A DNA stretch of 64,000 nucleotides from an uncultured Rickettsiales bacterium (GTDB taxonomy: Bacteria; Pseudomonadota; Alphaproteobacteria; Rickettsiales; SXRF01). This document shows, in pieces, positions 6,761 to 63,700 of this stretch; position 1 is the stretch's first letter, and each line of letters starts with the position of its first letter. The DNA lies in contig CAYOOP010000005.1 of the NCBI GenBank assembly GCA_964405685.1, forward strand, positions 108,713 to 172,712, read 5' to 3'. The translations under genes were made by a program, and so were the position numbers. The notes beneath the pieces were generated by a model, which saw only the letters and a list, made by a program, of their open reading frames with translations, was not told the DNA's origin and searched no databases.

Positions 6761-6848
6761 CGTCATTGCGAGGAGGCAGCGCCGACAAAGCAATCCAACC
6801 TTGTAGCTAGGAGAGATGCTGGATTGCTTCACTACGCTCGCAACGACG
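6761..6848. repeat. MITE-like palindromic element, family B, copy 1
   Basis: Terminal inverted repeats CGTCATTGCGAG / CTCGCAACGACG and an internal caatccaa...ctggattgcttc pair. Fills the gap between two convergent stop codons. Second copy at 39340-39433. Confidence 0.75.
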
Positions 6849-8734: not shown

Positions 8735-8797
8735 AAATATCCCCCGTGTTTTTAATTTGAAGGCGAAACTAAACCTTGCGGTGAATAGGGGCACTCA

Positions 8798-8822
8798 GAT
8801 TTTTGTGAAACTTTTGTGACAG
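8798..8822 (-). promoter_or_regulatory. Pho-box-like 7-4-7 direct repeat, copy 3
   Basis: Minus strand reads CTGTCAC-AAAA-GTTTCAC-AAAA, 63 nt upstream of ATG 8734. The same architecture recurs at 10994-11016 and 12294-12316. Confidence 0.45.
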
Positions 8823-8838
8823 TCGCGTTGGAGGTAGG

Positions 8839-9222: not shown

Positions 9223-10004
9223 CTGTCTCTATCGCCACCTTCAACGTCAATTCCATCCGCGCGCGCCTGCCGAATGTGCTGGCGTGGCTGTGCGAGGCCA
9301 AGCCGGACATTGTGTTGTTGCAGGAACTCAAATGCGTAGATGAGCAATTCCCTGCGCTTGAAATTGAGGATTTGGGGTATAACTGCGCCATTTACGGCGA
9401 AAAAACCTATAACGGCGTGGCTATTCTCTCCAAATTCAAGTTGGAAGATGTTTCGCGCGGACTTCAAGGCGACGAGGCGGATACCCAGGCGCGGTATATT
9501 GAAGCACTGGTGCATACCCCTCTGGGTGTGATGCGTGTGGCCTCAGTCTATGTGCCCAATGGGCAGGAAGTAGGCAGCGATAAATTTGCTTATAAACTTA
9601 AATTTTTAGGCAGGTTATATGCAAAACTTAAAGCAATACTTGAATATGAAGAGATGGTGGTGATCGGTGGGGATTATAACGTCGCACCGGAGAATTTGGA
9701 TGTGTATGATTCTAGGCGTTTAAGTGAGACGGTATGCTTCCATTCCGAGGAGCGCAAGCGCTTGCGGAAAATACTCCACCTGGGGTATGCTGATGCCTTC
9801 CGGCAATTGCATCCGGATGATCCAGGTTTTTCCTGGTGGGATTATAGAGGTGGGGCATTTGAAGCCGGGCATGGCCTTCGCATCGACCATTTGCTGCTTT
9901 CGCCACAGGCGGCGGATCGCTTGACGGCGTGCGAAGTGCATACATCAGTCCGCGCGGCCGAAAAAGCCTCGGACCATGCGCCGGTGGTGGGGGTGTTTGG
10001 TTAA
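9219..10004 (+). CDS. xthA: Exodeoxyribonuclease III
   Basis: 261 aa with IATFNVNSIRARL, LQELK, GDYNVAP and SDHAPV motifs of the ExoIII/AP-endonuclease family. Confidence 0.85.
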   Translation: MTVSIATFNVNSIRARLPNVLAWLCEAKPDIVLLQELKCVDEQFPALEIEDLGYNCAIYGEKTYNGVAILSKFKLEDVSRGLQGDEADTQARYIEALVHTPLGVMRVASVYVPNGQEVGSDKFAYKLKFLGRLYAKLKAILEYEEMVVIGGDYNVAPENLDVYDSRRLSETVCFHSEERKRLRKILHLGYADAFRQLHPDDPGFSWWDYRGGAFEAGHGLRIDHLLLSPQAADRLTACEVHTSVRAAEKASDHAPVVGVFG

Positions 10005-10924
10005 TACGCGCGGACGTTTACGGCTTGTTGTGGGCCTGTTATGGTGCCACCACCTCTTAGTTTCGGGTCAGGCGTCCGATCCAGCGGTACTGTGGCAGAA
10101 CGCTGTGAGGCTTCAATCTGCTGCTCCCATGAAGTTTCGAGGGTTTCAAAGCGTTGCTGGCGTCGCAGCGATGCAAACACAGATTCAAATTCCTCCGCCG
10201 TCATAGCTATCACTTGACCCGTGGTGGCTTCATCTTTGACAAGTCCAGCAATCACATCCTGTTTTAGTCGTGCTTGTTGTTCAGGAGTAAGATCGGCGAG
10301 TGTGAACTCGGCGAATGCAGGCATGGTAGCTAATTCCGCGAGTTGTTGACGTCCTGTAACCTTAGGAGCGGTATGATTGTTAACCTGTATTTGCCAGTAC
10401 AGTAGGTCCGACAAGCTCTTTCTGTTGACTGCGGCATCCATTTCATTACGCCAGTGTTCCGTTAGTTCGGCATGGGTTGTCTCGTTTTTCCTTACTCTGG
10501 CTATAAGCATGTCGAATTCTGTTCCGTATGATCTCCGCCGTTCATCATCATTGGTAGGTGCAGCAAGCTGATCTCCTGCGTGTTTAGCCATAAAATTTCG
10601 GATGACGTCTGCTGTGGAATTATGGGTGCGATCTTCAATATACTGCGTTCTTAAAGTTGCAATTTCTTCGGGTGACAGGCTGGCAAGCATGACTTCTGCT
10701 TTTGCGGCAATTGTGGCGGAAAGACTGAGTAATTCCAAGTTATGTCCTGTAATACGATTGTGCGCTATTTCGCTTTTGTAATGACTAAGCTTCTTAAAGG
10801 CATCGAGCGGTGTTTGCGGATCAGCATCTTTCATCAGGCGATCGAATGAACCGGTGTCGTTTACGTCCATCCTGGCCTTGAGTGCTTGAAAGACCGGAAG
10901 TTCATTAAGGTCAATGTTAATCAT
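10001..10924 (-). CDS. Hypothetical protein P1 (307 aa), member of the tail-sharing family
   Basis: AAGGAG RBS. Two internal LA(S/D)L(S/T)PE(E/Q)...L(R/K) modules at aa 80-94 and 209-222. C-terminus is RTPDPKLRGGGTITGPQQAVNVRAY. Confidence 0.6.
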   Translation of the reverse strand: MINIDLNELPVFQALKARMDVNDTGSFDRLMKDADPQTPLDAFKKLSHYKSEIAHNRITGHNLELLSLSATIAAKAEVMLASLSPEEIATLRTQYIEDRTHNSTADVIRNFMAKHAGDQLAAPTNDDERRRSYGTEFDMLIARVRKNETTHAELTEHWRNEMDAAVNRKSLSDLLYWQIQVNNHTAPKVTGRQQLAELATMPAFAEFTLADLTPEQQARLKQDVIAGLVKDEATTGQVIAMTAEEFESVFASLRRQQRFETLETSWEQQIEASQRSATVPLDRTPDPKLRGGGTITGPQQAVNVRAY

Positions 10925-10993
10925 AAAGGACTCCTTCTGTTAGTTGTAGTTTGCCTTGCGTTTAACATTGCGTGGGAGGAGGCAGCAATGCAC

Positions 10994-11016
10994 GATTTAT
11001 GAATTTTTTGTGACAG
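10994..11016 (-). promoter_or_regulatory. Pho-box-like 7-4-7 direct repeat, copy 1
   Basis: Minus strand reads CTGTCAC-AAAA-AATTCAT-AAAT, 69 nt upstream of ATG 10924. Confidence 0.45.
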
Positions 11017-11020
11017 GGGC

Positions 11021-11063
11021 AAAGCCTCCGACCACGCGCCGGTGGTGGGGGCGCTGGGGTGAA
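11021..11063. repeat. Displaced copy of the xthA 3' terminus
   Basis: aaagcctccgaccacgcgccggtggtgggggcgctggggtgaa aligns to xthA 9963-10004 (aaagcctcggaccatgcgccggtggtgggggtgtttggttaa), stop codon included. Confidence 0.75.
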
Positions 11064-11347: not shown

Positions 11348-11667
11348 ATCCTCTTTCGCTCGTGGTCCATCCAGACGTAGCCTCAGACCTCAACTCTTTT
11401 ACAAAAAGCTATGAATACCTTGTACGCGGGCTGGGCACGCAGTTCGTGTTGGAGGTAGACTTTGTATTTGGGCGCATTGCTATTTTGCCGCGCTCATACC
11501 AGCTTTGTTTCGGCGAATTCCGGCGAGCGTTGCTGGATCGCTTTCCATTCGCGATAGGGTTTCGGGTGACAGACAAGGCGATTTATGTTGACGGAATCTT
11601 TCCAACCAAGGCCAGCCCTGACCGTATTGCAGATTTATTGAACGCACGCGCTGGTGGTGGTGTTTAG
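11344..11667 (+). CDS. ParE/RelE-family type II toxin
   Basis: 107 aa. RRALLDRFPFAIGFRVTDKAIYVDGIFPTKASP is a typical ParE/RelE C-terminal pattern. The last codons (ARAGGGV) lie inside a copy of the xthA 3' end. Confidence 0.6.
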   Translation: MNPLSLVVHPDVASDLNSFTKSYEYLVRGLGTQFVLEVDFVFGRIAILPRSYQLCFGEFRRALLDRFPFAIGFRVTDKAIYVDGIFPTKASPDRIADLLNARAGGGV

Positions 11668-11745
11668 CTAATACGCGCGGACATTTACGGCTTGTTGTGG
11701 GCCTGTTATGGTGCCACCACCGCTTAGTTCTGGGTCAGGCGTTTG
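11644..11745. repeat. ~100-bp repeat of the xthA-end / P1-end junction
   Basis: 11644-11745 aligns to 9975-10078 at roughly 90% identity by eye. It spans the xthA-like stop region and the last ~75 nt of the convergent gene. Confidence 0.8.
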
Positions 11746-12219: not shown

Positions 12220-12293
12220 TGTTTAGGTCTTTCGCATTAAAAGTTTCAAGAGTCGGGAGATGGTACTGTGTCGCTTTATGCACAGCAATTAAC

Positions 12294-12316
12294 GATTTGT
12301 GAATTTTTTGTGACAG
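12294..12316 (-). promoter_or_regulatory. Pho-box-like 7-4-7 direct repeat, copy 2
   Basis: Minus strand reads CTGTCAC-AAAA-AATTCAC-AAAT, 74 nt upstream of ATG 12219, in the divergent intergenic region shared with the MarR gene. Confidence 0.45.
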
Positions 12317-12412
12317 TGGCTGTGGCCGTTGGTCTTGGTGGGGTGCAGCGTACATAAACCCTATCTTAACCACGATATGCTAGGATTAGCGGTGGATTAA
12401 CATGCCTGGAGA

Positions 12413-12884: not shown

Positions 12885-12972
12885 CGTCATTCCCGCGTAG
12901 GCGGGAATCTGTTCGCTTATAAAAATAGTGATTACTTTGCGAGTGGATCCCTGACCTCACGCGGGGATGACG
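12885..12972. repeat. MITE-like palindromic element, family A, copy 1
   Basis: CGTCATTCCCGCGTAGGCGGGAATC ... GCGGGGATGACG. Occupies the whole gap between the convergent MarR and thiD stop codons. Confidence 0.75.
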
Positions 12973-12973
12973 C

Positions 12974-13867
12974 TTATTTATGTTCCCACATATGCCACAG
13001 CGGGCCGGTGCCTTTGCCTAGTTTAGGCGCGTTTGTGATGGCGCCGGCGACGTAAGTGTGGGCGCGTTCCACCGCATTTTTTAAATCCATTCCGCTACCG
13101 ATAAATGTTGCGAGCGCCGAGGCCATGGTGCAGCCGGTGCCGTGGGTGTTTTTGGCCTTCAAGCGCGGTGCTTCAAAGACGGTGACGGTGGTGCCGTCAA
13201 AGAGGATGTTGAACACGTTCTTTCCCTCCAAATGCCCGCCTTTGACGAGCACGTTCCTGGGGCCAAGCTTGTGAATACGTTTTGCCGCTTCAATCATGTC
13301 TGCTTGCGAGATTATTTGCATTCCTGCCAGAATTTCTGCTTCAGGAATGTTGGGAGTAACTAAGTAAGCAAGAGGCAGGAGTTTGGTTTTAAGCGCAGCT
13401 ACCGCTTCTGTTTGCAGCAGTGCCGCACCACCTTTTGCGACCATGACGGGGTCGACCACCAACGGAATTGTTCCCCCCGCTTGCGGGGGGATACAGGGGG
13501 GAATACCCCCACCCACTGCGCTAACGCCTTTGGCGTAAGCTCCGTTACCCTCCCCCGCGAGCGGGGGAGGTTTACTAAGGGCAGATACCACTGCCTCAAT
13601 TGCCGCACTGGTCGAAAGCATTCCCGTTTTAATGGCATCCGCGCCGATATCGCTTAAGCACAATTTGATTTGCTGGGTGATGAACGTGGGTGGCACGTCG
13701 TGAATATCGAAGACGCCTTGTGTGTTTTGTGCGGTTAAGGCGGTGATCGCCGTCATCGCGTAACCGGCTAGGGCCGTTACGGTTTTGAGGTCGCCTTGAA
13801 TGCCGGCGCCGCCGCCGGAATCGGAACCGGCGATGATGAGAATGCGTGGGATCATACTAGTTGTCAT
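12974..13867 (-). CDS. thiD: Hydroxymethylpyrimidine/phosphomethylpyrimidine kinase with an in-frame repeat-derived insertion
   Basis: 297 aa with IAGSDSGGGAGIQGDLKT, VVDPVMVAKGG and THGTGCT ThiD motifs. An extra ~33 aa (PPPLAGEGNGAYAKGVSAVGGGIPPCIPPQAGG) is encoded by repeat D1. Confidence 0.85.
   Translation of the reverse strand: MTTSMIPRILIIAGSDSGGGAGIQGDLKTVTALAGYAMTAITALTAQNTQGVFDIHDVPPTFITQQIKLCLSDIGADAIKTGMLSTSAAIEAVVSALSKPPPLAGEGNGAYAKGVSAVGGGIPPCIPPQAGGTIPLVVDPVMVAKGGAALLQTEAVAALKTKLLPLAYLVTPNIPEAEILAGMQIISQADMIEAAKRIHKLGPRNVLVKGGHLEGKNVFNILFDGTTVTVFEAPRLKAKNTHGTGCTMASALATFIGSGMDLKNAVERAHTYVAGAITNAPKLGKGTGPLWHMWEHK
13470..13570. repeat. G/C-hairpin palindromic element, family D, copy 1 (inside thiD, in frame)
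   Basis: TTCCCCCCGCTTGCGGGGGGA and CCTCCCCCGCGAGCGGGGGAGG terminal hairpins. Its reverse complement matches 57886-58013 apart from a ~27-bp internal indel. Confidence 0.8.
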
Positions 13868-15347: not shown

Positions 15348-15354
15348 GGGAGTT

Positions 15355-15450
15355 TTATACCATGGCTTTGATAAGTTGGCCAATAAACGGCTTAAGCTTC
15401 GGCACAATCTTCGTTTTATCCTCAAAATCCTCCATATAAACCAGCGATTG
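15355..15450 (-). repeat. Displaced copy of the mfd 3' end
   Basis: 15383-15450 matches mfd 16116-16183 with 1 mismatch in 68 bp. It continues in diverged form to its own stop (KPFIGQLIKAMV* versus KPFIGQLTAAVG* in mfd). Confidence 0.85.
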
Positions 15451-16018: not shown

Positions 16019-16087
16019 GTGGCACCTCCATCTCGGGTGATGGTGCCATAAAACCCAAAAAATGTCAAACTTTGCGCAATAAATTGT

Positions 16088-19000
16088 TTAACCCACGGCG
16101 GCGGTTAACTGTCCTATAAACGGCTTAAGCTTCGGTACAATCTTCGTTTTATCCTCAAAATCCTCCATATAAACCAGCGATTGGTCGGGCTTCAACTTCA
16201 GGCGGGTGGGGTGTTTCCCGATGAAGGTAATGAGTTTTTCCACTTCGCGTACCGCGCGCTCTTTGAAGCTAATCACCGCGCCTTTCGGGCCGACATCGAG
16301 CCGTGCAATGGCGGCTTTGAAGCAGAGTTGTTTGAGGAGGACGGTGGAAAGCAGGTTTTCGACTTCTTCGGGAAGCGGGCCAAAACGGTCGATGAATTCG
16401 GCGTGAAGTGCTTCCACCTCCTCTTCCGTTTTCATGCTGGCGGCGCGTTTGTAGAGGCCCATCCGTAATTCTAAATCCGCCACGTAGGTTTCGGGGATCA
16501 AGACCGGAATGCCAAGGTTGATTTGGGGAGACCACTCCTGCACACGCACTTCTGCTTCGCCGCTGTGCTTGAGTGCGGCAATCGCCTCTTCCAACATATG
16601 TTGATAAAGCTCGACACCGACTTCGCGAATATGGCCGGATTGTTCTTCGCCGACGAGATTTCCAAATCCGCGGATGTCCATGTCGTGGCTGGCAAGCGTG
16701 AATCCGGCGCCTAGGCGGTCAAGCGTTTGCATGACTTCGAGACGGCGCACCGCTTGGTGGGTGATGGTTTGCGGGGGGATAATAAAATACGCATACGCCC
16801 GCTGCTTGCCGCGACCGACACGGCCGCGCATTTGGTAGAGCTGGCCGAGGCCAAAACGATCGGCGCGGTTGATAATAATCGTGTTGGCGGTTTGTACATC
16901 AAGGCCAGATTCGATGATGGAGGTGGAAATCAGCACGTCGACCTCGCCGTCGTAAAACTTCGTCATGATGGATTCGAGTTCGCTTGGGCTCATCTGTCCG
17001 TGCGCGAGCGCGAAGGAAAGTTCGGGCGTAAGCTCGCGCATTTGCTTGTACAAATCATCCATATCGGCGATGCGCGGGGTGACGATGAAGCTGCGGCCGC
17101 CGCGGTGTTTTTCGCGCATCAACGCTTCGCGGATGATGACGGGGTCAAACGGCATGACGAAGCTGCGGATGGCGAGGCGATCAATGGGTGGTGTCGTAAT
17201 CAAACTCAAATCGCGCACGCCGGAGAGGGCGAGTTGCAGCGTGCGCGGAATGGGCGTTGCCGTAAGTGTCAGCACGTGCACGTCGGTTTTCAATTCCTTC
17301 AAACGCTCTTTTTGTTTCACGCCGAAATGCTGTTCTTCATCGACTATCACGAGGCCGAGGTTTTTGAACTCAATGCCTTTGGCAAGCAGTGCATGTGTGC
17401 CGATGACGATGTCGATGGTGCCATCAGCAATGCCTTCTTTCGTGGCTTTTTGAGTGTTAGCATCTACTAGCCGTGAAAGCTGGCTGACGCGAATGGGGAA
17501 ATCGGCGAAGCGATTTTTAAACAGAGTATAATGCTGGCGTGCGAGGAGACTCGTGGGGACGATAATCGCCACTTGGCGATTAGTTGTCAGTTGACAGTTG
17601 TCAGTTGACAGGAACGCTTCACTGTCAACTGGTAACTGGTGACTGGTAACTACCGCGAAAGCGGCGCGCAGTGCCACTTCGGTTTTGCCGAAGCCGACGT
17701 CGCCGCAGACCAGACGGTCCATAGGTTTGCCGCTGTTTAAGTCGGCAAGCACATCGTCAATGGCACGTGCCTGATCTTCCGTTTCGGCAAAGCCGAAGCC
17801 ACGTGAAAATTCTTCAAGCGTGCCGCTTTCGGCGTGGATGCGTGCACCTGCTTTGAGCGCGCGCTGCGCGGCGGTTTTGATGAGTGCTTCAGCTGCAAGC
17901 TGGATGCGCTCTTTCATACGCGATTTACGCATTTGCCACTGCGCGGCACCGAGTTTATCGAGCGCTACACCTTCGGTTTCCGAGCCGAAGTGCGACAGCA
18001 CATCCATGTTCTCTACGGGTACAAAAAGCTTATCGTCATTATCGTAAATGATTTTCAGGCAATCATGTGCTGCGCCGAGCACGTTCAGTGTTTCCAGTGT
18101 TTCAAACCGGCCGATGCCGTGTTCGCGATGTACCACCAATTCGCCGTATGCGAACTGCGCGGCTTCTTGCAAAAAGACATCGGTTTTCTTTTTGCTTTTG
18201 CGATCTGCAATCCGCACGCCGAGCAACTCGGTTTCGGTCAAGATGGTAAAATCAGGTGTAGCAAAACCTTTCGCCAGCGGTAGATGCGCAACGCCAACGC
18301 CGTGTTCAGGAATGCTTTCAAGATTGTGGAGATGATGCAGATTAATCGCGTCAATCCCCTCAATACGCAAGCGCTCACGCAGGCGATCCGCCGAGCCGCG
18401 CGTGGCGGCGGCGAGGATGGTAGGGGTCGCTGAAAGCCTCTGTTTCAGGGCGGCGTAGGGGTTGGAATCAGTGATGGCGAGCACGGCTTGTGTGCGTAGG
18501 GATGTTTTGCCTTCGAAGGGGGTAAGCGTCACGCTTTCGTGTGCAGCGAGTTCGCTTTCGCTTAGGTAAAATGCTGCAGGTGGTAGCGGATGATAAGGGC
18601 TGGCGTGGGGAAGCTTGTCGGTGCGCAAACGTGCATCGTAATAATCCTGAATCAAGGCTTCGCGTTCGGCGAGGATATCAGCGGTGGTGGGCGCCCACAC
18701 GAGTGTTGCGCCGGGTGCGTAGTCTGGCAAGGTGGCGGTGGTTTCGTAGAAGAGAGGGAGAAAAAATTCGAGGCCGGGGATGCGCGCGCCGCTCGAGATT
18801 GCTTCATACATCGCACTCCCTTGTTGCTGCGCGCCGAAGTGTTCGCGGTAGCGTGTGCGAAAGCATTCGATGCTGTCTTGCGTCAGCCAGATTTCGCTCG
18901 CGGCTTCTAAAAATAAACTATCCGCATCGGCAAGGCTACGCTGGGTGAAGGGGTCAAACCGGCGAATGGTTTCGATGGTGTTGCCGAAGAGATCGAGGCG

Positions 19001-19507
19001 AAATCCCTGCTCTTCGCCGCTCGGGATAATATCGATCATGCTGCCGCGCAGCGCGTATTCTCCGGGCTCCATCGCTTTACCGGAGCGGCGATAGCCAGCG
19101 TTTTCCAGAAATTGTACGAAGGCTTCGTGGTTGATAGTTTCATTTTTTTTGAGGTTAAAACGCGTGGTGCCGGCCACGTCTTTCGGCATCACACGCTGGG
19201 TGATGGCGGCGACAGTGGTGAGGATGATCGGCGCGTCAACGCTTTTAGCAAGTGCGTGTAGCGTGTGAATGCGCTGGCTCACAATCGTGGGATTAGGCGA
19301 GGCGCGGTCATACGGTAGCGTATCCCACGCAGGAAAATGTAGGACGCTTCGGCCTTTAATAAAAAAGGGCAGGGCGGCGGATGCTTGCGACAACTCGCGA
19401 TCGTTTGTGCAGATGTAGATGAGCGCTTTTTTGGGTGATGCTTCCGCGACCGTAGCAAGAGCATAAACGCCTGCGCCTTCTGCGACTCCGCCTACGAGCC
19501 TGTTCAT
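16088..19507 (-). CDS. mfd: Transcription-repair coupling factor with an in-frame palindromic insertion
   Basis: 1139 aa with GDVGFGKTEVALRAAF (Walker A), DEEQHFGV, LTLTATPIPRTL and QLYQMRGRVGRG motifs. An extra 24 aa lies between Walker A and VAIIVPT. Confidence 0.9.
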   Translation of the reverse strand: MNRLVGGVAEGAGVYALATVAEASPKKALIYICTNDRELSQASAALPFFIKGRSVLHFPAWDTLPYDRASPNPTIVSQRIHTLHALAKSVDAPIILTTVAAITQRVMPKDVAGTTRFNLKKNETINHEAFVQFLENAGYRRSGKAMEPGEYALRGSMIDIIPSGEEQGFRLDLFGNTIETIRRFDPFTQRSLADADSLFLEAASEIWLTQDSIECFRTRYREHFGAQQQGSAMYEAISSGARIPGLEFFLPLFYETTATLPDYAPGATLVWAPTTADILAEREALIQDYYDARLRTDKLPHASPYHPLPPAAFYLSESELAAHESVTLTPFEGKTSLRTQAVLAITDSNPYAALKQRLSATPTILAAATRGSADRLRERLRIEGIDAINLHHLHNLESIPEHGVGVAHLPLAKGFATPDFTILTETELLGVRIADRKSKKKTDVFLQEAAQFAYGELVVHREHGIGRFETLETLNVLGAAHDCLKIIYDNDDKLFVPVENMDVLSHFGSETEGVALDKLGAAQWQMRKSRMKERIQLAAEALIKTAAQRALKAGARIHAESGTLEEFSRGFGFAETEDQARAIDDVLADLNSGKPMDRLVCGDVGFGKTEVALRAAFAVVTSHQLPVDSEAFLSTDNCQLTTNRQVAIIVPTSLLARQHYTLFKNRFADFPIRVSQLSRLVDANTQKATKEGIADGTIDIVIGTHALLAKGIEFKNLGLVIVDEEQHFGVKQKERLKELKTDVHVLTLTATPIPRTLQLALSGVRDLSLITTPPIDRLAIRSFVMPFDPVIIREALMREKHRGGRSFIVTPRIADMDDLYKQMRELTPELSFALAHGQMSPSELESIMTKFYDGEVDVLISTSIIESGLDVQTANTIIINRADRFGLGQLYQMRGRVGRGKQRAYAYFIIPPQTITHQAVRRLEVMQTLDRLGAGFTLASHDMDIRGFGNLVGEEQSGHIREVGVELYQHMLEEAIAALKHSGEAEVRVQEWSPQINLGIPVLIPETYVADLELRMGLYKRAASMKTEEEVEALHAEFIDRFGPLPEEVENLLSTVLLKQLCFKAAIARLDVGPKGAVISFKERAVREVEKLITFIGKHPTRLKLKPDQSLVYMEDFEDKTKIVPKLKPFIGQLTAAVG
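17581..17652. repeat. 72-bp heptamer-built palindrome inside mfd (in frame)
   Basis: Arms TAGTTGTCAGTTGACAGTTGTCAGTTGACAG and CTGTCAACTGGTAACTGGTGACTGGTAACTA flank the loop GAACGCTTCA. Each arm is a run of 7-bp units. Confidence 0.8.
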
Positions 19508-38865: not shown

Positions 38866-39383
38866 AGCTCTTAAACAGGGCCGAAGCTTTTAGCAAAAAA
38901 CAGCGCGAGCGGGCGCGGGAGCGCCGCAAACGGCCGATGTCGCCGTTTGGTGTAGGCTATGGCTCGTTTCATGAACGCATGATTGCGGCGATGGTCGATT
39001 TGCTGCTGGTTAGTTTCGTGACGACGCCGCTGATGCAGCCTCCCATCAACGCGGAGGTCTGGGCGATGAATTCCTTGGTGCAAGCGGTGGTGATTGGAAC
39101 GTATTGCCTCACCTGGTGGTATTTCTACGCGGCGACGCCGGGGAAGATGATTTTCCGTCTGCACATCGTCGATATGAAAACCGGATTGCCGATCAAGCGC
39201 CCGCAGGCAATGAAGCGTATCGTGGCCTACGTGCTATCCACGGTTTCTATCATCGGGATTTTCTGGATGCTATGGAACAAAGACCGTCGTTGTCTGCATG
39301 ATCTTATCGCAGAAACGGCGGTGGTGAAACGGCCAAAAACGTCATTGCGAGGAGGTGAAACCGACGCGGCAATCCAGCCCTGA
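38850..39383 (+). CDS. RDD-family membrane protein with a MITE-encoded C-terminal tail
   Basis: TM-rich protein with a WNKDRRCLHDLIAETAV (RDD-type) motif. The last 14 aa (SLRGGETDAAIQP) are encoded by repeat B2. Confidence 0.55.
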   Translation: MQKLLELLNRAEAFSKKQRERARERRKRPMSPFGVGYGSFHERMIAAMVDLLLVSFVTTPLMQPPINAEVWAMNSLVQAVVIGTYCLTWWYFYAATPGKMIFRLHIVDMKTGLPIKRPQAMKRIVAYVLSTVSIIGIFWMLWNKDRRCLHDLIAETAVVKRPKTSLRGGETDAAIQP

Positions 39384-39433
39384 GGCTAGGAGAGATTCTG
39401 GATTGCTTCGTCGCTACGCTTCTCGCAATGACG
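39340..39433. repeat. MITE-like palindromic element, family B, copy 2
   Basis: CGTCATTGCGAGGAGG ... CTCGCAATGACG. Homologous to 6761-6848. Ends 1 nt before the tatA stop codon. Confidence 0.75.
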
Positions 39434-49488: not shown

Positions 49489-49496
49489 AACTCATA

Positions 49497-49935
49497 CCCT
49501 CTCCCGCGTGCGGGAGAGGGTTAGGGAGAGGGTGGATAGACAAGGAGAAACCATTGCGGGAAAACGCCAAACTTAAGCAAGCCAAGCAATTGCGGAAGCA
49601 GATGACGGAAGCTGAGAACTTGTTGTGGTATTATTTGCGCGCCGAAAGATTTTTGGGTTTCAAGTTTCGTCGCCAGGTGCCCATAGAAGGTTATGTTGCG
49701 GATTTTGCCTGTGTTCACCCTCCGGTCATTATCGAGGTTGATGGCGGTGGGCATACCACACAACAAGAAAAAGATAAAATACGCGATGAAGTCTTGCGAA
49801 AACGTGGCTATAAGGTATTACGTTTTTGGAATAATGAGGTATTCGAGAATATTGAAGGCGTGTCGATGACGATTAAAAATGCACTTGAGACTTCCCCTCT
49901 CCCCCACCCCTCTCCCGCACGCGGGCGAGGGGAGA
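49497..49935 (+). mobile_element. DUF559 gene bracketed by ~39-bp inverted repeats (family E), inserted between nuoI and nuoJ
   Basis: Left end CCCTCTCCCGCGTGCGGGAGAGGGTTAGGGAGAGGGTGG (49497-49535). Right end CCCCTCTCCCCCACCCCTCTCCCGCACGCGGGCGAGGGGAG (49893-49935) is approximately its reverse complement. Confidence 0.65.
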
Positions 49936-49952
49936 AGGTCTGCGTGTTATGA
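49554..49952 (+). CDS. DUF559 (Vsr-like endonuclease fold) domain protein
   Basis: 132 aa with a TTG start after AAGGAG. MTEAENLLWYYLR...FRRQVPIEGYVADFAC...IIEVDGGGH...VLRFWNNEV is the DUF559 pattern. The tail SPLPHPSPARGRGE is repeat-encoded, and the stop overlaps the nuoJ ATG. Confidence 0.75.
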   Translation: MRENAKLKQAKQLRKQMTEAENLLWYYLRAERFLGFKFRRQVPIEGYVADFACVHPPVIIEVDGGGHTTQQEKDKIRDEVLRKRGYKVLRFWNNEVFENIEGVSMTIKNALETSPLPHPSPARGRGEKVCVL

Positions 49953-52844: not shown

Positions 52845-52951
52845 GTCATCCCGTCGAATGACGGGATCCAGCGCTTCGCTCACGCGAAGCAAAAAGAGTC
52901 CTATTGCGCGGCAGACGCCGCTTACTGGATTCCGTCATTCGACGGGATGAC
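52845..52951. repeat. MITE-like palindromic element, family A, copy 3 (between nuoL and nuoM)
   Basis: GTCATCCCGTCGAATGACGGGATCC ... GGATTCCGTCATTCGACGGGATGAC. Occupies most of the 138-bp nuoL-nuoM spacer. Confidence 0.75.
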
Positions 52952-56978: not shown

Positions 56979-57122
56979 ATGAGAAAACTATGGATTTTAT
57001 TGGCGCTACCCTTGCTGCTTGCGGCATGTGACAAAAAAATTGAAGACTTAAAAAGCCCATGCGTTGGTGCGGAAGGTAGTCCGTGTGACAAGCGCGCGCC
57101 AGCCGGTAACCCGCAAAGCTAG
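56979..57122 (+). CDS. Tiny lipoprotein (47 aa)
   Basis: Hand-translated MRKLWILLALPLLLAACDKKIEDLKSPCVGAEGSPCDKRAPAGNPQS. Lipobox LLAAC and AGGAGGG RBS. Below the track cutoff. Confidence 0.45.
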   Translation: MRKLWILLALPLLLAACDKKIEDLKSPCVGAEGSPCDKRAPAGNPQS

Positions 57123-59965
57123 TGGCGCTTCACTCCATTCCTCCGCATTTGCCGTTTTTGGAAACCCTAGCGGATGAAATCTTGGCGCCGCGTGAAGCAC
57201 TTGCTGACGCATTGATTTTACTGCCTTCACGCCGCAATTGCCGTGCGTTGACGCAAGTGCTGGTAGAACGTTCCACTGAGCAGGCGCTGCTGTTGCCGCG
57301 CATTGCTCCGCTTGGGGAAGTGGATGAGGATGCGCTGACATTGGAGCTTGCACTCGGCGGCGACATGATCGAATTCCTGCCCGCCATTTCCCGCATGGAG
57401 CGTATTGCGCGGTTGGCTGCTATGTTTGGGGATGCGCTGCCGCAGCACCATTCCATCATGCTTGCGCGATCGCTCGGTGAATTGATGGATGAATTTGAGC
57501 GCGCGCAGGTGCCGCTTTCGGCGCTTGAAACCTTGGTGCCGGAGCTTTACGCGCAGCATTGGCAAAAGGTGATCGACGTGCTGAAAATCGCGATTCGCCA
57601 GTGGCCGCGAGAATTGGAAAAATTAGAAAAACAAAATCCCATTGCGCGGCGTAATCAATTGGTCGCGGCGCTCATCAAGCATTGGAGGGAACATCCACCT
57701 GCGTACCCTATTATTGCTGCGGGTTCTACGGCCAGTACCAGGGCAACGGCGGATTTACTGGCGGCCATCGCAGAGCTGCCAAATGGCAAGGTGGTGCTGC
57801 CGGGGCTTGCAAATGTTTCGGAGGATTATTGGAATGCGGTGGATTTGGCGCATCCGTATTATTTTTTGAAAAGATTCCTAGAGAACCTCCCCCGCTTGCG
57901 GGGGAGGGCAACGAAGCTTACGCCTTTAGGCGTTAGCGTAGTGGGTGGGGGAACATTGTCTACCCCCCTTGAAAAAGGGTTCCCCCCTGAATCCCCCCGC
58001 AAGCGGGGGGAACTATTTTTGTCCGCCTTTGCGCCGCCGGAAATGATTCCACAGTGGCAGCATGAGGAGATTGATCTGGCGTCGGCGACGGAGGGGTTGA
58101 CGCTACTTGAAGTAGAAAACGAATTCGAGGAAGCACGCACTGTGGCGCTTGCCGCGCGGGAAGCACTGGAAGACCCTAATGCGAAAGTGATGATTGTTAC
58201 CGAGTCGCGTGACCACGCAGCGCTGATTTCTTCTGCCTTAAAACGCCACGGCATCGAGGCGGATGCGAGCCACGGGCTTAATTTGCTGCAAACTGAAGTA
58301 GTGACGTTTTTGCGATTAGTATTGGCTTGCGCGGAAGAGACAAGTGCAGTCAATCTCCTTGCACTTCTAAAACATCCACTGGCCCGCGCGGGGCTTACGC
58401 GTGCAGAATGCTTGCAAGCAGCGCGGGAAATGGATGTGCAGCTTCGTGGCTATGCACTTTTAGATGTGTTTCATGCGCTGGAGCACGAGGAATTAAGCGA
58501 TGCCGCGCGTGCGGTGGTGGCGACACTAAAAGTGGCTATAACGCCACTTGCACGCGCACTCAAGCATCCACACATCGCAGTTACGGAATTGATACGGTTG
58601 CATATCAGCGTAGCCGAACAATTAGCGGAGGATTTGTGGAAAGGGGAGCAGGGGCAGGCGGTCGCCGAGGTATTGGCAGAACTTGCAACATCACTCGCGC
58701 CGATGGGTGCGGTGCAGGGGGCGCTATATAGTAAGATATTCGAGGAATTGCTGGCGCAGGAATATTATCAGGCGCCTTATGGCACGCACCCGCGGCTTAG
58801 CATTTTGTCATCCCAAGAAGCGCGTTTGCTCTCGGCAGATCTGGTGATTGTGGCGGGTATGGTGGAAGGGCAAATGCCCCCTGCGGCGATTCCCAACCCC
58901 TGGATGGGGCGGCACATGATGGAGGCGCTTGGGCTGCATCTGCCGGAGACGGCAGCGAGCCGCACCGCGCACGATATGTTGATGTTGAGCCACGCCAAGC
59001 GCCTGGTGCTTTCGCGGCCGCGGCATGTGGGCGGTAACCCTGCGGAACCCTCGCGCTATATCACCCGGCTCACACTGTATTTGAAAAGTAAGGATGAGGG
59101 GTTTTATGCCAGCCTTCAGAATACGCGCATTCCGGCGTTGCTCAAGCAACTGGACGCAGCGGCGCTGAATAGTGTCGCTCAGCCCGCGCCTACGCCGCCC
59201 ACTGCCGTGCGGCCACGCAGATTCACGGTGTCGGAAATTGAGACCCTGCTGCGCGACCCTTACGCCATTTATGCCAAACATATTTTGAAATTAAAACCGC
59301 TGGAGGTTTTGCAACGCGCGCCGGATGCGGCGCTTTTTGGCAAGGTGATGCATAAGGTATTGGAGCGTTTTTCAACCATGGTGCCGGATACGGAACAGTT
59401 CCGCGCTGTGGGTGTGGAGGTAATGCGTACTATGCTGCATCAAACCGCGACCATCGCTTTGTGGCAGCCACGAATGGATGCGTTGATGGAGGAGTTGGTT
59501 GCACTGGAACGTGCGCGGCGTGTGGATATTACATCGCTCAAAGCCGAAACATCACTCGCAAAAACATTTGCGATTGGCGATCTACAGATTGAACTGCGTA
59601 CGCGCATTGATCGGCTGGAAGAACATCGTGATGGCGGCCAAGTACTTACGGATTATAAAACAGGTGCAGTGCTTGAGGCGAGCAGGGTGAAATCCGGAAA
59701 AGCGCCGCAATTGCCGCTGATGGCGATGATTGTAGAAGGTGTTTCAGGCAAGCCGGTGACAGAGCTTGAATATTGGAATGTCAGTGGCCGCGCGGGGCTT
59801 GAACCTAGCACGACTCCATATACCCCCGAGCTGCGCGCTAAAGCGGAAGCAGGTTTCAAGCAGCTCATGGAAGTGTTTTTGCAGGTAGATACGCCGTATA
59901 TCGCCACGCGTGACGATGAGTGGAATGACTATGCGCATTTGGAGCGAACTGCAGAGTGGGTTTGA
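57122..59965 (+). CDS. addB: Double-strand break repair protein AddB (alphaproteobacterial type) with an in-frame repeat insertion
   Basis: 947 aa with an AddB-like N-terminus (LPFLETLADEIL) and a C-terminal PD-(D/E)xK-like region (LTDYKTG). Residues PRLRGRATKLTPLGVSVVGGGTLSTPLEKGFPPESPRKRGE are encoded by repeat D2. Confidence 0.8.
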   Translation: MALHSIPPHLPFLETLADEILAPREALADALILLPSRRNCRALTQVLVERSTEQALLLPRIAPLGEVDEDALTLELALGGDMIEFLPAISRMERIARLAAMFGDALPQHHSIMLARSLGELMDEFERAQVPLSALETLVPELYAQHWQKVIDVLKIAIRQWPRELEKLEKQNPIARRNQLVAALIKHWREHPPAYPIIAAGSTASTRATADLLAAIAELPNGKVVLPGLANVSEDYWNAVDLAHPYYFLKRFLENLPRLRGRATKLTPLGVSVVGGGTLSTPLEKGFPPESPRKRGELFLSAFAPPEMIPQWQHEEIDLASATEGLTLLEVENEFEEARTVALAAREALEDPNAKVMIVTESRDHAALISSALKRHGIEADASHGLNLLQTEVVTFLRLVLACAEETSAVNLLALLKHPLARAGLTRAECLQAAREMDVQLRGYALLDVFHALEHEELSDAARAVVATLKVAITPLARALKHPHIAVTELIRLHISVAEQLAEDLWKGEQGQAVAEVLAELATSLAPMGAVQGALYSKIFEELLAQEYYQAPYGTHPRLSILSSQEARLLSADLVIVAGMVEGQMPPAAIPNPWMGRHMMEALGLHLPETAASRTAHDMLMLSHAKRLVLSRPRHVGGNPAEPSRYITRLTLYLKSKDEGFYASLQNTRIPALLKQLDAAALNSVAQPAPTPPTAVRPRRFTVSEIETLLRDPYAIYAKHILKLKPLEVLQRAPDAALFGKVMHKVLERFSTMVPDTEQFRAVGVEVMRTMLHQTATIALWQPRMDALMEELVALERARRVDITSLKAETSLAKTFAIGDLQIELRTRIDRLEEHRDGGQVLTDYKTGAVLEASRVKSGKAPQLPLMAMIVEGVSGKPVTELEYWNVSGRAGLEPSTTPYTPELRAKAEAGFKQLMEVFLQVDTPYIATRDDEWNDYAHLERTAEWV
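57886..58013. repeat. G/C-hairpin palindromic element, family D, copy 2 (inside addB, in frame)
   Basis: Terminal hairpins CCTCCCCCGCTTGCGGGGGAGG and TCCCCCCGCAAGCGGGGGGA. Inverted orientation relative to 13470-13570. Confidence 0.8.
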
Positions 59966-59975
59966 TCTATTATTT

Positions 59976-60000
59976 CCCCTCTACCCCGTGGGGGAGAGGG
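59976..60000. repeat. Solo family-E-like hairpin just after the addB stop
   Basis: CCCCTCTACCCCGTGGGGGAGAGGG, an imperfect hairpin related to the ends of the DUF559 unit. Confidence 0.5.
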
Positions 60001-60010
60001 AACAAAGTAC

Positions 60011-60219
60011 TTATACCAAAGCAACGAAGTTTCATGACATTTATCACCGTCATTCCGTCGCAAGACGGAATCCAGTAAGCGGCGTCTGCCGCGTAGAAAG
60101 ATCATAACGCTGCTTGCTGCAGCTACTGGATTCCGTGTCTGTTCCTTGAGCACCCTTGCAAGCAAGGCTACTCAAGGGCACGGAATGACGGTGTCATGTT
60201 ATTTCGTTGCTTTGGTATT
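60011..60219. repeat. Composite ~210-bp palindromic element with a family-A-like core
   Basis: Outer arms TATACCAAAGCAACGAAGTTTCATGACA...CCGTCATTCCG and CGGAATGACGG..TGTCATGTTATTTCGTTGCTTTGGTAT. The core has gtcattccgtcgcaagacggaatcc. Confidence 0.7.
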
Positions 60220-60729: not shown

Positions 60730-63700
60730 ATGGATAAAAAACAAGAGCTTATAGCTACATCTCCGGACGTAAATGTCTGGGTTTCGGCCAATGCGGGGGC
60801 GGGAAAGACCCGTATTTTGACCCATCGCGTCCTGCGCCTGCTTGCCGAAGGCGCGCCGCCTTCGTCCATTTTGTGCCTCACCTATACCAATGCCGGGGCG
60901 GCGGAAATGCGTGCACGCATCATCAAAGAAGTGGGTCGCTGGGCGACGATTAAAAGCGATGCGTGCGCGGTATCGCTGGAGACATTGCTGGGCCGTGCGC
61001 CGGATTCAGATACGATCGCACGCGCGCAATCGCTCTTCGCGCAGATTGTCGACCGGGATGATGCTCTGCGGATTGAAACAATCCACGCCTTTTGCCAATC
61101 GCTATTGCGCAGGTTCCCGCTTGAGGCCCATATCTTCCCGCATTTTACACTCATGGATAATCAGGAAGTGCAGCTACTTGCGGGCCACTGCCTGATGCGG
61201 CTTTTAAGCCGTACGCAAGAGAGTGCAACACTCAAAGAAAGCCTTTCGTTTCTGGCGACTAGCCGTGCAGACGGTAGTTTACGAAAAATGGCACTTAGCA
61301 TGGTGGCACAACAGATAAAATGGCGGCGGTTTTTTGCACGTACGGATGTGGAAGATTATATTCGTGATTACGCCAAGCGTCTGCAGGTGGATCTAGGTGC
61401 GGATTTGAAGGCCACCTATTTTAGCTACACGCCTGCGGAGTTGAGCGTGTTGCGCGCTTGTGTACAGAAGATGTTGGCGAGTGGGGGGAAGCTGGATAAA
61501 CAGCGCGGTGCGGTGCTTGCGCGCTGGTTTGAAACGCAGACGCAGGCGGATGCGTATGTGGATGCGTGGCTCACGGAAAAAGAAACGCTGGTTGCGAATA
61601 TGGTGTCCAAAGCCGCTGGATTGAGCGAAGCGGAAGCCCAGGCGATGGATGCCGAACGTTTGCGCGTAGAGGCGTATTTGAAAGCACGGAGCAGCCTAGC
61701 GCTCTTAACCGAAACCAAGCATGTGCTGACGTTTGCGGAAGGCCTACTCGCACTGTACGAACACGAAAAACAAGCGCGCGGATGGATGGATTTTGACGAC
61801 ATGATCGCAGGTGCAGAAAGCTTGCTGGGCGCAAGCGCCATGCGTGACTGGGTGCTGTATAAATTAGACAGCGCGATTCATCATGTGTTGATTGATGAAG
61901 CGCAGGACACGAGCCCTTCGCAGTGGCGCATTGTCGAGGCGCTCACCGAAGAATTTTTTGCCGGCGCGGGACTGGAGCACCCGCGTAGCTTGTTTGTGGT
62001 GGGGGATTTTAAGCAGTCTATTTTCAGTTTCCAGGGTGCGGATGCGGATTTGTTTCTCGCGATGAAAACGCAAATTAAAGAACGTGCGGAAGCTGCGGGC
62101 GTGATGTTTTATGAGCTGGCGCTTGAGGAATCCTATCGTTCCACCGCGCCGGTGTTGCAAGCCGTAGACACTATATTTCAGCCCATGATGCCTGACATTC
62201 GTCACGTGCTGACGCGCAAAAATCAGGCGGGCAAGGTGGTGCTGTGGCCACTGGTGACGGTGGAGAAAGCAGAAAAGCAAGAGGGTTGGGCGTTGCCGCA
62301 GACTGAAGTGCGCGCAACAGCGGAAGAAAAACTGGTAGCGGCACTTGTTGCGGAAATTGCGGGATGGATTGGTGTGCGTGACTTGCCGGCCAAAGGCCGC
62401 AAGGTGCAGCCTGGCGATGTTATGATTTTGCTGAAGAAACGTGGCACGCTGGCGATGCGTCTGGTGAATGCGTTCAAAGCCAGAGGAATCCCGGTTTCCG
62501 GGGCGGACCGCATGGTGCTTGCAGACCATTTGGCGGTGCAGGATATGCTGGCGTTGCTCAAATTCGCGCTACTGCCGCAGGATGATTATACGCTCGCCTG
62601 TGTGCTCAAATCGCCGTTGTGTGGGCTTACAGAAGATGCATTGTTTGAACTGGCGCATAGGCGCATAGGGACATTATTTGAAGCACTTAAAACTTCATCG
62701 CATACACAAGCAATCGAGCTGCTCAGCAGCGTGCTTGCGCTTGCGGATAAACGCCCGCCATCGGCGCTGATGGCTGAAGTGCTGGGGTATGGTATGCGCC
62801 GGAATTTTGCAGCGCGGCTCGGGGCGGATGCGCTTTCGGTGCTCGACACATTGCTGCAAACCGCGCATGAATATGAAGCGTTGCATCCGCCAAGTGTGCA
62901 GGGTTTTGTCCATTTCATGGAGCAGGTGGAGACGGAATTCACGCGCGGGAATGCCAGTGAAAACGTGGTGCGGGTGATGACGGTACATGGTGCAAAAGGC
63001 TTGCAAGCGCCGATTGTGATACTGCCGGATGCGGCCTCGCCCTTATCCGCGCCCGAGCAACTCACCTGGCAAAAAGGCGAACCGCGCTTGCTGCCGCCGG
63101 ATAAAGGCTCGTACGGCATTGCTGATGACGTGAAGGACGCGCGCAGAAACTCTATGCAAAGCGAATATTTGCGCTTGTTCTACGTGGCGCTAACGCGGGC
63201 GGAGGATGAGCTGTATATTCTAGGCTATACGGGCAGAAGTGTACCGGAAACCAGCTGGTACACGCTCGCGCAAAAAGCGCTCACACCGATTTCAGAACCT
63301 CTGGAAACCCCTGTGGGGCGGGGGGTTGCAGTTATTTGTCATCCTGAGCGTAGCGAAGGATCTCTATGCCCGCAAAAGGTCCTTCGCTACGCTCAGGATG
63401 ACAGGGAAATACCAAAATGGGCGACCACGCCGGTTGCGCTCGAGCCTATGTACACTGCGCCGGTACTGCCTTCGAAGCAGGATGCGGAAAGCGAGAACAC
63501 CGCGCCTTCGCCGCTCGCGCGTGACGTTGCGGTTGCACGCGGGCGGATGGTGCATCACCTGTTGCAATATTTGCCGGAGATAGAGCAGGGACGGCGCGCA
63601 GCGGTTGCAAAGCTCTTTTTAGCACGGCGTTATGCGGACGCTGAGGAAGACGTACGCGAACAAGTGGTGCGGGATGTAGTGCGGTTGATGGATCATCCGG

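Follow-up and report, generated by a model that had tools for sequence, protein, structure and literature searches.

A hairpin-bounded element in thiD and addB

The window analyzed here is a 64,000-nucleotide (nt) stretch of contig CAYOOP010000005.1 from an uncultured Rickettsiales bacterium, and it contains, among other genes, the hydroxymethylpyrimidine/phosphomethylpyrimidine kinase gene thiD (12974-13867, minus strand) and addB (57122-59965, plus strand), each of which carries in frame one copy of a short element bounded by G/C-rich hairpins. Copy 1 (13471-13572, 102 nt, minus strand; nhmmer E=4e-32) lies in thiD and copy 2 (57885-58013, 129 nt, plus strand; nhmmer E=2.3e-29) in addB. Direct reading and alignment showed the two to be one element, present as chromosomal reverse complements, as an original prediction made from the sequence had claimed with coordinates right to within 1-2 nt; the ~27-bp internal indel that it described was resolved into one indel of 26 nt and one of 1 nt (27 nt in total), outside of which identity was ~93%. 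That prediction had also called the copies inverted, which is true of the chromosome and not of the host genes: because the two genes lie on opposite strands (thiD minus, addB plus), both copies have the same polarity relative to the genes that they occupy. Both host open reading frames (ORFs) remain open, as had been proposed, encoding proteins of 297 aa (ThiD, Pfam Phos_pyr_kin) and 947 aa (AddB, Pfam PDDEXK_1).

Both copies start with CCTCCCCCGC-nn-GCGGGGGAGG and end with TCCCCCCGC-nn-GCGGGGGGA, just as originally quoted, with G/C stems of 9-10 bp. The left terminal hairpin of copy 1, at its 5′ end in the thiD reading direction (13549-13570, CCTCCCCCGC-GA-GCGGGGGAGG), shows compensatory changes among family members, and its right terminal hairpin is at 13472-13491 (TCCCCCCGC-TT-GCGGGGGGA); in copy 2 the corresponding hairpins are at 57886-57907 and 57992-58011. 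These four are the only perfect G/C-rich hairpins with a stem of ≥8 bp in the window. Their core motif, CCCCCGCNNGCGGGGG, has four sites in the 64 kb against 0.04 expected, a number reached by none of 100 shuffles. The terminal inverted repeats (TIRs) share a 16-nt core that is identical at 15/16 positions, a score matched by 1 of 2,000 shuffles (p ∼0.0005). As single-stranded DNA, copy 1 is predicted to fold into four hairpins (-34.9 kcal/mol, z=-4.85) and copy 2 reaches -40.3 kcal/mol (z=-5.97); over all element copies z ranged from -4.4 to -6. The element is 63-68% G+C in a host genome of ∼52% G+C, and, being small, TIR-bounded, and without an ORF of its own, it has the form of a MITE (a miniature transposable element with inverted repeats). 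A scan of the window against Rfam found no known RNA family.

Copy 1 encodes a 33-aa insert, PPPLAGEGNGAYAKGVSAVGGGIPPCIPPQAGG, its 102 nt covering 34 codons, and copy 2 encodes (N)LPRLRGRATKLTPLGVSVVGGGTLSTPLEKGFPPESPRKRGE; translation reproduced both peptides as originally predicted. In an alignment to PDB 7r8y, ThiD residues 99-131 stand in place of two residues that connect a helix to the conserved PLVVDPVM strand, placing the insert in the turn before this strand, where the prediction had put it, and splitting the Pfam Phos_pyr_kin match into two stretches. Structure modeling, which had been proposed along with the prediction, was done with AlphaFold2 from 120 homologs and gave a mean predicted local distance difference test score (pLDDT) of 89.7, with values mostly >89 outside the insert. 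Within the insert, three 10-residue blocks scored 46-53 and a single 3-residue helical turn was formed, so that the insert is modeled as a disordered loop and the fold as intact. In AddB, the insert is found in a variable-length linker downstream of the conserved HP(Q/Y)xxLK motif, and the invariant residues of both protein families are all retained. The best named matches of this AddB, at 35-38% identity, were from Magnetospirillum.

A third in-frame copy was found on another contig of the same assembly, in a peptidase-C26/glutamine amidotransferase gene (P0121; L124 10498-10599), where the ORF is open, its orientation and 33-aa peptide match those in ThiD, and it directly precedes the conserved VNSxHHQ strand. 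It came from searching proteins with the open frames translated and joined end to end, which also recovered ThiD; this search was not an exhaustive census of copies, because it missed AddB itself. The three intragenic copies, all in a single orientation relative to the host gene, are 93-96% identical outside the indels and occupy unrelated genes of one assembly. An nhmmer profile built from the three found no additional copy within the window or on L124, but matched a 155-nt intergenic relative ∼0.4 kb past the right edge of the window (L130 17243-17397; E=1.4e-5), which has a thioredoxin gene on one side and a glnA-like gene on the other and whose length is not a multiple of 3. A similar intergenic element was present in a Rickettsiales metagenome-assembled genome (MAG; L041). 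Across five family members, 98.9% of the cells in the hairpin stems were paired, the sole exception being one mismatch in the C26 copy, and four pairs showed compensatory double changes; pairing at this level, together with these changes, indicates that the hairpins are what is conserved. In JGI metagenomes, the central block of the element had no match; a right-end pattern had two, both without hairpins, and these were dismissed as chance.

The insertions are recent: the thiD site is empty in a syntenic relative (L121, ThiD 73% identical) and the closest AddB (64% identical) also has no element; the ortholog alignments that the original prediction had proposed thus place both inserts in genes whose nearest orthologs lack them. 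The organism with this closest AddB (L129) carries an intergenic-type copy elsewhere, ∼90% similar, as judged by eye, where the two overlap. Where the window's addB has its insert, the addB of this relative (L129 3001-5769) contains another linker, of 57 nt (TPPSFTLPDKGEGNERS), that includes a weak hairpin-like remnant, and this site may previously have been occupied.

Readability without stops in both orientations, which the original prediction took as the hallmark of Rickettsia palindromic elements (RPEs), was not borne out. All intragenic copies are read in one orientation, and open frames number two of three sense and one of three antisense in the 102-nt copy (3/6), and one of three in each direction in the 129-nt copy (2/6); examined over all six frames, these totals are the commonest values in composition-preserving shuffles and thus give no sign of stop avoidance. 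The ends of the element are also read in different frames, as PRLRGRATK...SPRKRGE in AddB and PPPLAGEG...PPQAGG in ThiD and the C26 protein, and because of the indels the two readings have a common frame only mid-element. The 102- and 129-nt variants are both multiples of 3 in length; the element has no special coding design, and it is this length that counts.

A DUF559 cassette as a candidate relative, and the ThiD loop in other bacteria

A candidate full-length relative lies elsewhere in the window, between nuoI and nuoJ: a cassette encoding a DUF559 endonuclease (PF04480; Vsr-like PD-(D/E)xK) at 49489-49948 on the plus strand. It separates nuoI from nuoJ, which would otherwise adjoin in the NADH dehydrogenase operon, points in the operon's direction, and is bounded by TIRs of ∼37 nt, identical at 34/37 positions, which contain hairpins at 49497-49520 and 49908-49931. 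Its longest ORF spans 49554-49952, of which the gene called in the ENA record is 49602-49952. The left ends of the cassette and the mini-element agree at 26/31 positions, a score equaled by none of 2,000 shuffles, and the left hairpin of the cassette is that of the 155-nt intergenic copy (24/24). Another hairpin of this class (CCCTCTACCCCGTGGGGGAGAGGG, 59977-60000) stands alone 12 nt past the addB stop codon and may be a terminator or an element remnant. The element had been described originally as belonging to a family apparently unrelated to RPEs. An RPE-like in-frame repeat in housekeeping genes is indeed what was found, but it is not isolated, as its hairpins are related to those of the DUF559 cassette and to a widespread class.

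To place these hairpins in a wider context, a genome collection was scanned with the left hairpin, giving at least 120 loci in Proteobacteria; proportions given below refer to the matches listed. The hairpin CCTCCCCCGCNNGCGGGGGAGG alone occurred at these ≥120 loci across many Proteobacteria, and none of the 120 listed contained the full element, so the hairpin by itself is generic. Four of the 120 listed, unrelated loci had a DUF559 ORF within 200 nt of the hairpin, and inverted hairpins bracketed DUF559 in two of three such adjacent loci examined (L083 and L099). Counted from the other side, four of six DUF559 matches were ≤200 nt from a hairpin, an adjacency beyond chance (rough P ∼1e-3). 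Hairpins fell inside long open frames in 63% of cases versus 83% for random positions, a test that is uninformative in G/C-rich genomes. Among 10 hairpin-containing open frames, seven had no Pfam match and one had Pfam domains spanning the hairpin; the latter was LysA (diaminopimelate decarboxylase) of a betaproteobacterial Gallionella MAG, in which a generic hairpin (L022 5463-5484) is in frame at approximately residue 340.

Compared with 1.84 billion cluster representatives, the DUF559 ORF of the window had 24,545 matches. A hairpin-encoded C-terminal tail of the form xPxPxxPPxxG was present in 59 of the best 150 of these, versus 0.7% in controls, and 42 of the same 150 were proteins of ≥300 aa with DUF559 embedded in frame in, or fused to, another protein. 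Thirty of these 42 were scanned with Pfam, which identified many HsdS proteins, DNA methylases, Ham1, RecO (twice), Pth, HPPK, peptidase M14, LipB, EarP, and DUF5915, and in a minority only the DUF559 domain. In nearly all 42, which are among the matching representatives P0252-P0387, including the HsdS and methylase proteins, the domain is flanked by hairpin-encoded peptides. The notion that every long DUF559 protein is a mobile insertion was nonetheless tempered, given the many HsdS and methylase contexts, which are potentially functional fusions. DUF559 genes are enriched among predicted targets of programmed inversion (PMC9881135), which fits their inverted-repeat flanks, and the clan includes the homing endonuclease I-Bth0305I (PMC3424549, PMC3239194). 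A search of the DUF559 literature turned up no description of a hairpin-bounded mobile cassette.

The loop occupied in the window's ThiD is a hot spot for elements of this class. Inserts of ≥13 aa were present at this loop in 17 of 120 ThiD homologs and at no other site in ThiD, and in two of the 120 (P0008 and P0021; DNA in L122 and L123) a whole DUF559 domain is embedded there in frame. Homologs with hairpin-encoded loop inserts are found among P0007-P0115, with DNA in L122, L123, L127, and L128. The ThiD miniature of L127 matches the L123 element at 39/42 positions of the left end and 38/46 of the right end, with a ∼360-nt deletion between, so that, judged by sequence comparison, the ThiD site in other bacteria carries a full-length element of this class and a miniature related to it. 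Occupied ThiD sequences have nearest neighbors (75-84% identical) that are mostly unoccupied, and in the L122/L123/L127 group the inserts are 60% and the hosts 66% identical, a pattern compatible with repeated gains as well as with one old gain and many losses. The insert in the window's ThiD was acquired independently of that group, given its ∼96% identity to the copy in another gene of its own genome. The patchiness at one ThiD site resembles what homing would give, in contrast to the ORF-less copies of the window's genome, which lie in three different genes. AddB was considered as a second hot spot and rejected, with hairpin-type linker inserts in only 2-3 of 120 AddB homologs.

The window also contains repeats of other kinds. 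A second, unrelated palindromic class starts with CGTC (CGTCATTCCCGCGTAGGCGGGAATCT and CGTCATTGCGAGGAGG... types) and occurs at 12885, 24563, 24645, 52845-52951, 55602, 60048-60190, and 63337-63403, and also at 6761-6830 and 39340-39409; the repeats at 12885, 52845-52951, and 60048-60190 are between the main ORFs, and the class resembles the CGTC-tagged superfamily of repetitive extragenic palindromes (REPs) (PMC3733652). Segments of 38-94 nt, 87-91% identical, recur every ∼1.1-2.2 kb around several minus-strand ORFs (8789-8826, 9963-10075, 10983-11058, 11649-11742, and 12283-12320) and are probably conserved 3′ ends and upstream regions of paralogous genes. Finally, a 97-nt direct repeat (15354-15450 and 16087-16183; 87% identical, 733 nt apart) is located near the end of a 1139-aa ORF (16088-19507, minus strand).

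Probable origin and persistence of the element

The element represents a new family within a known kind, that of in-frame MITE- or RPE-like elements. Its repetition, the recency of its insertions, the open frames of its hosts, and the homology of its ends to the DUF559 cassette are established by the comparisons above; that it moves at all, by a dedicated mechanism, we infer. The account that we consider the most probable, with moderate confidence, is that it is a young, low-copy, non-autonomous, MITE- or REPIN-like hairpin element of a DUF559-associated class (REPINs being paired REP hairpins that move together), kept in frame by a survival filter. On this account, the 102- and 129-nt variants bounded by inverted G/C hairpins would belong to a broad class of proteobacterial G/C hairpin repeats, usually found on either side of Vsr-like DUF559 endonuclease genes. 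Insertion would have occurred into A/T-richer stretches of thiD, addB, and the peptidase-C26 gene, where surface turns or linkers are encoded, and the copies would be translated as Pro/Gly-rich disordered loops tolerated by the host folds. The left flanks of the three intragenic copies are A/T-rich and share only a weak YTAS motif 5-8 nt upstream. Copies would persist because they are 3n nt long and happen to be free of stops in the frame that is read, the in-frame state thus reflecting a survival filter and not a special coding design. The link between element and DUF559 cassette, apparently undescribed, is plausible, and the DUF559 nuclease may supply mobility in trans.

Several observations weigh against this account. 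Known near-identical copies number only three, and the flanks of these three intragenic copies contain no direct repeat that would represent a target-site duplication (TSD). The right end of the mini-element resembles that of the cassette weakly (p ∼0.03). DUF559 proteins have been treated as Vsr-like repair nucleases, for example VsrA of Caulobacter (PMC12907096), none of them is known to act as a transposase or in homing, and many of their fusions to restriction-modification components could be functional architectures. Lastly, the thiD and C26 copies differ at four positions over 99 coding nt, all of them synonymous third positions (P ∼0.006), which hints at some constraint at the protein level that a pure junk loop would not predict.

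A bolder version, which we put forward as a tentative possibility, is that hairpin-bounded DUF559 cassettes are an undescribed class of selfish DNA that invades conserved genes without an intron or intein, is read through as a loop or domain, recurs at sites such as the ThiD turn before PLVxDPVM, and decays to miniatures. Rather unlikely, though still a serious competitor, is that the element is a REP/REPIN or an ordinary MITE moved in trans by a conventional enzyme, either a REP-associated tyrosine transposase (RAYT; Y1) or an insertion sequence (IS) transposase, with DUF559 a passenger or preferred neighbor. Such an origin would account for the 116 of 120 listed hairpin loci that have no DUF559 nearby, for REPIN-like hairpin doublets such as that of L083, for the lack of a visible TSD, as in IS200/IS605 and RAYT mechanisms, and for the weak right-end match to the cassette. 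Yet the 64-kb window yielded no RAYT-like motif, the feet of the mini-element hairpins do not have the GTAG or CGTC tags typical of REP superfamilies (PMC3733652), and a separate CGTC-tagged class co-exists in the same window. The near-identical copies are, moreover, all intragenic, unlike REPs, and the above-chance adjacency of hairpins to DUF559 and the conserved hairpin-encoded tail also count against such an origin.

Selection on the inserted peptide as an interaction or regulatory loop, with the DNA repeat kept as a consequence, would explain the identical 33-aa peptides of ThiD and the C26 protein and the synonymous character of all four differences between their genes. It is an improbable explanation, however, because AddB uses another frame at both ends of the element, the ThiD insert is modeled with low pLDDT and nearly no secondary structure, conservation lies in hairpin base pairing with compensatory changes, an intergenic member exists, and the closest orthologs do without the insert. 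Least credible of all is an artifact of assembly or binning, or a set of decaying pseudogenes in a MAG: the genome is indeed a short-read metagenome assembly of ∼14.5x coverage (ERZ3430527), and repeats can mislead assemblers, but every copy is flanked on both sides by the same gene, in frame and with invariant residues intact, and a typical read pair spans more than the 102-129 nt of the repeats. The window sequence is also identical over the 16,878 comparable nt to an independent ENA record (NODE_30, 174,311 bp, of that assembly), and analogous inserts are present in many independent assemblies.

In-frame selfish DNA has long been seen mainly as a curiosity of Rickettsia, and the present case extends it to a G/C-rich family in an alphaproteobacterial genome of the free-living type, one that also brings a candidate protein partner. 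If DUF559 mobilizes these hairpins, a role would be provided for a family of >24,000 cluster representatives whose present annotation is either a domain of unknown function or a Vsr-like repair enzyme, the Pro/Gly-rich SPxRGEG...PxPxPPxxGEG segments in proteobacterial protein predictions would be explained, and the evolution of loop and domain insertions by way of mobile DNA would become testable by experiment. Hairpin-encoded inserts also split Pfam domains, and annotation and ortholog alignment can be misled by them.

Comparison with known systems

The closest parallel in behavior is with RPEs (Ogata et al., 2000, 2002, per PMC10969869), which are likewise ∼100-150-bp palindromic repeats, sit in frame within housekeeping genes that are unrelated to one another, are translated as extra segments at fold-compatible positions, and have no recognizable transposase inside. 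The window element differs in its 63-68% G+C and its long G/C hairpins at both ends, in being represented by only three known near-identical copies versus dozens, and in its host, an uncultured alphaproteobacterium that is not Rickettsia. RPEs are A/T-rich, and homology of the window element to the described RPE families is unlikely because of its G+C content. A further difference is that the element has a candidate protein-coding relative in the DUF559 cassette; we know of no protein-coding relative or partner reported for RPEs.

In-frame reading is in any case not confined to Rickettsia, since ERIC, the Coxiella QMITE1/2, and Anabaena MITEs are also read in frame (PMC10969869, PMC5896051). 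With bacterial MITEs in general the element shares its small size, TIRs, strong predicted secondary structure, inter- and intragenic locations, and occasional in-frame fusions, but it has no detectable TSD, and its candidate full-length relative encodes a Vsr-like PD-(D/E)xK nuclease instead of a DDE/IS transposase.

REP/REPIN-RAYT systems (PMC3733652, PMC3184786) similarly consist of short imperfect palindromes that are rich in G/C and frequently arranged as inverted pairs, with a coding gene bracketed by the same repeats. The hairpins of the element, in contrast, have no GTAG/CGTC tags, the bracketed gene is DUF559 and not a Y1 transposase, and the copies are intragenic, whereas REPs are high-copy and by definition extragenic. 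The Vsr-like EDxHD homing endonucleases, such as I-Bth0305I (PMC3239194; grouped with DUF559 in PMC3424549), belong to the same nuclease fold clan, and the full-length cassettes resemble their genes in a patchy presence at one precise site in a conserved gene (the ThiD loop) and in decay to miniatures. The cassettes differ in having no intron or intein around them and in being translated through, and the window element itself, which is ORF-less and occupies three non-homologous sites, is not explained by classical homing.

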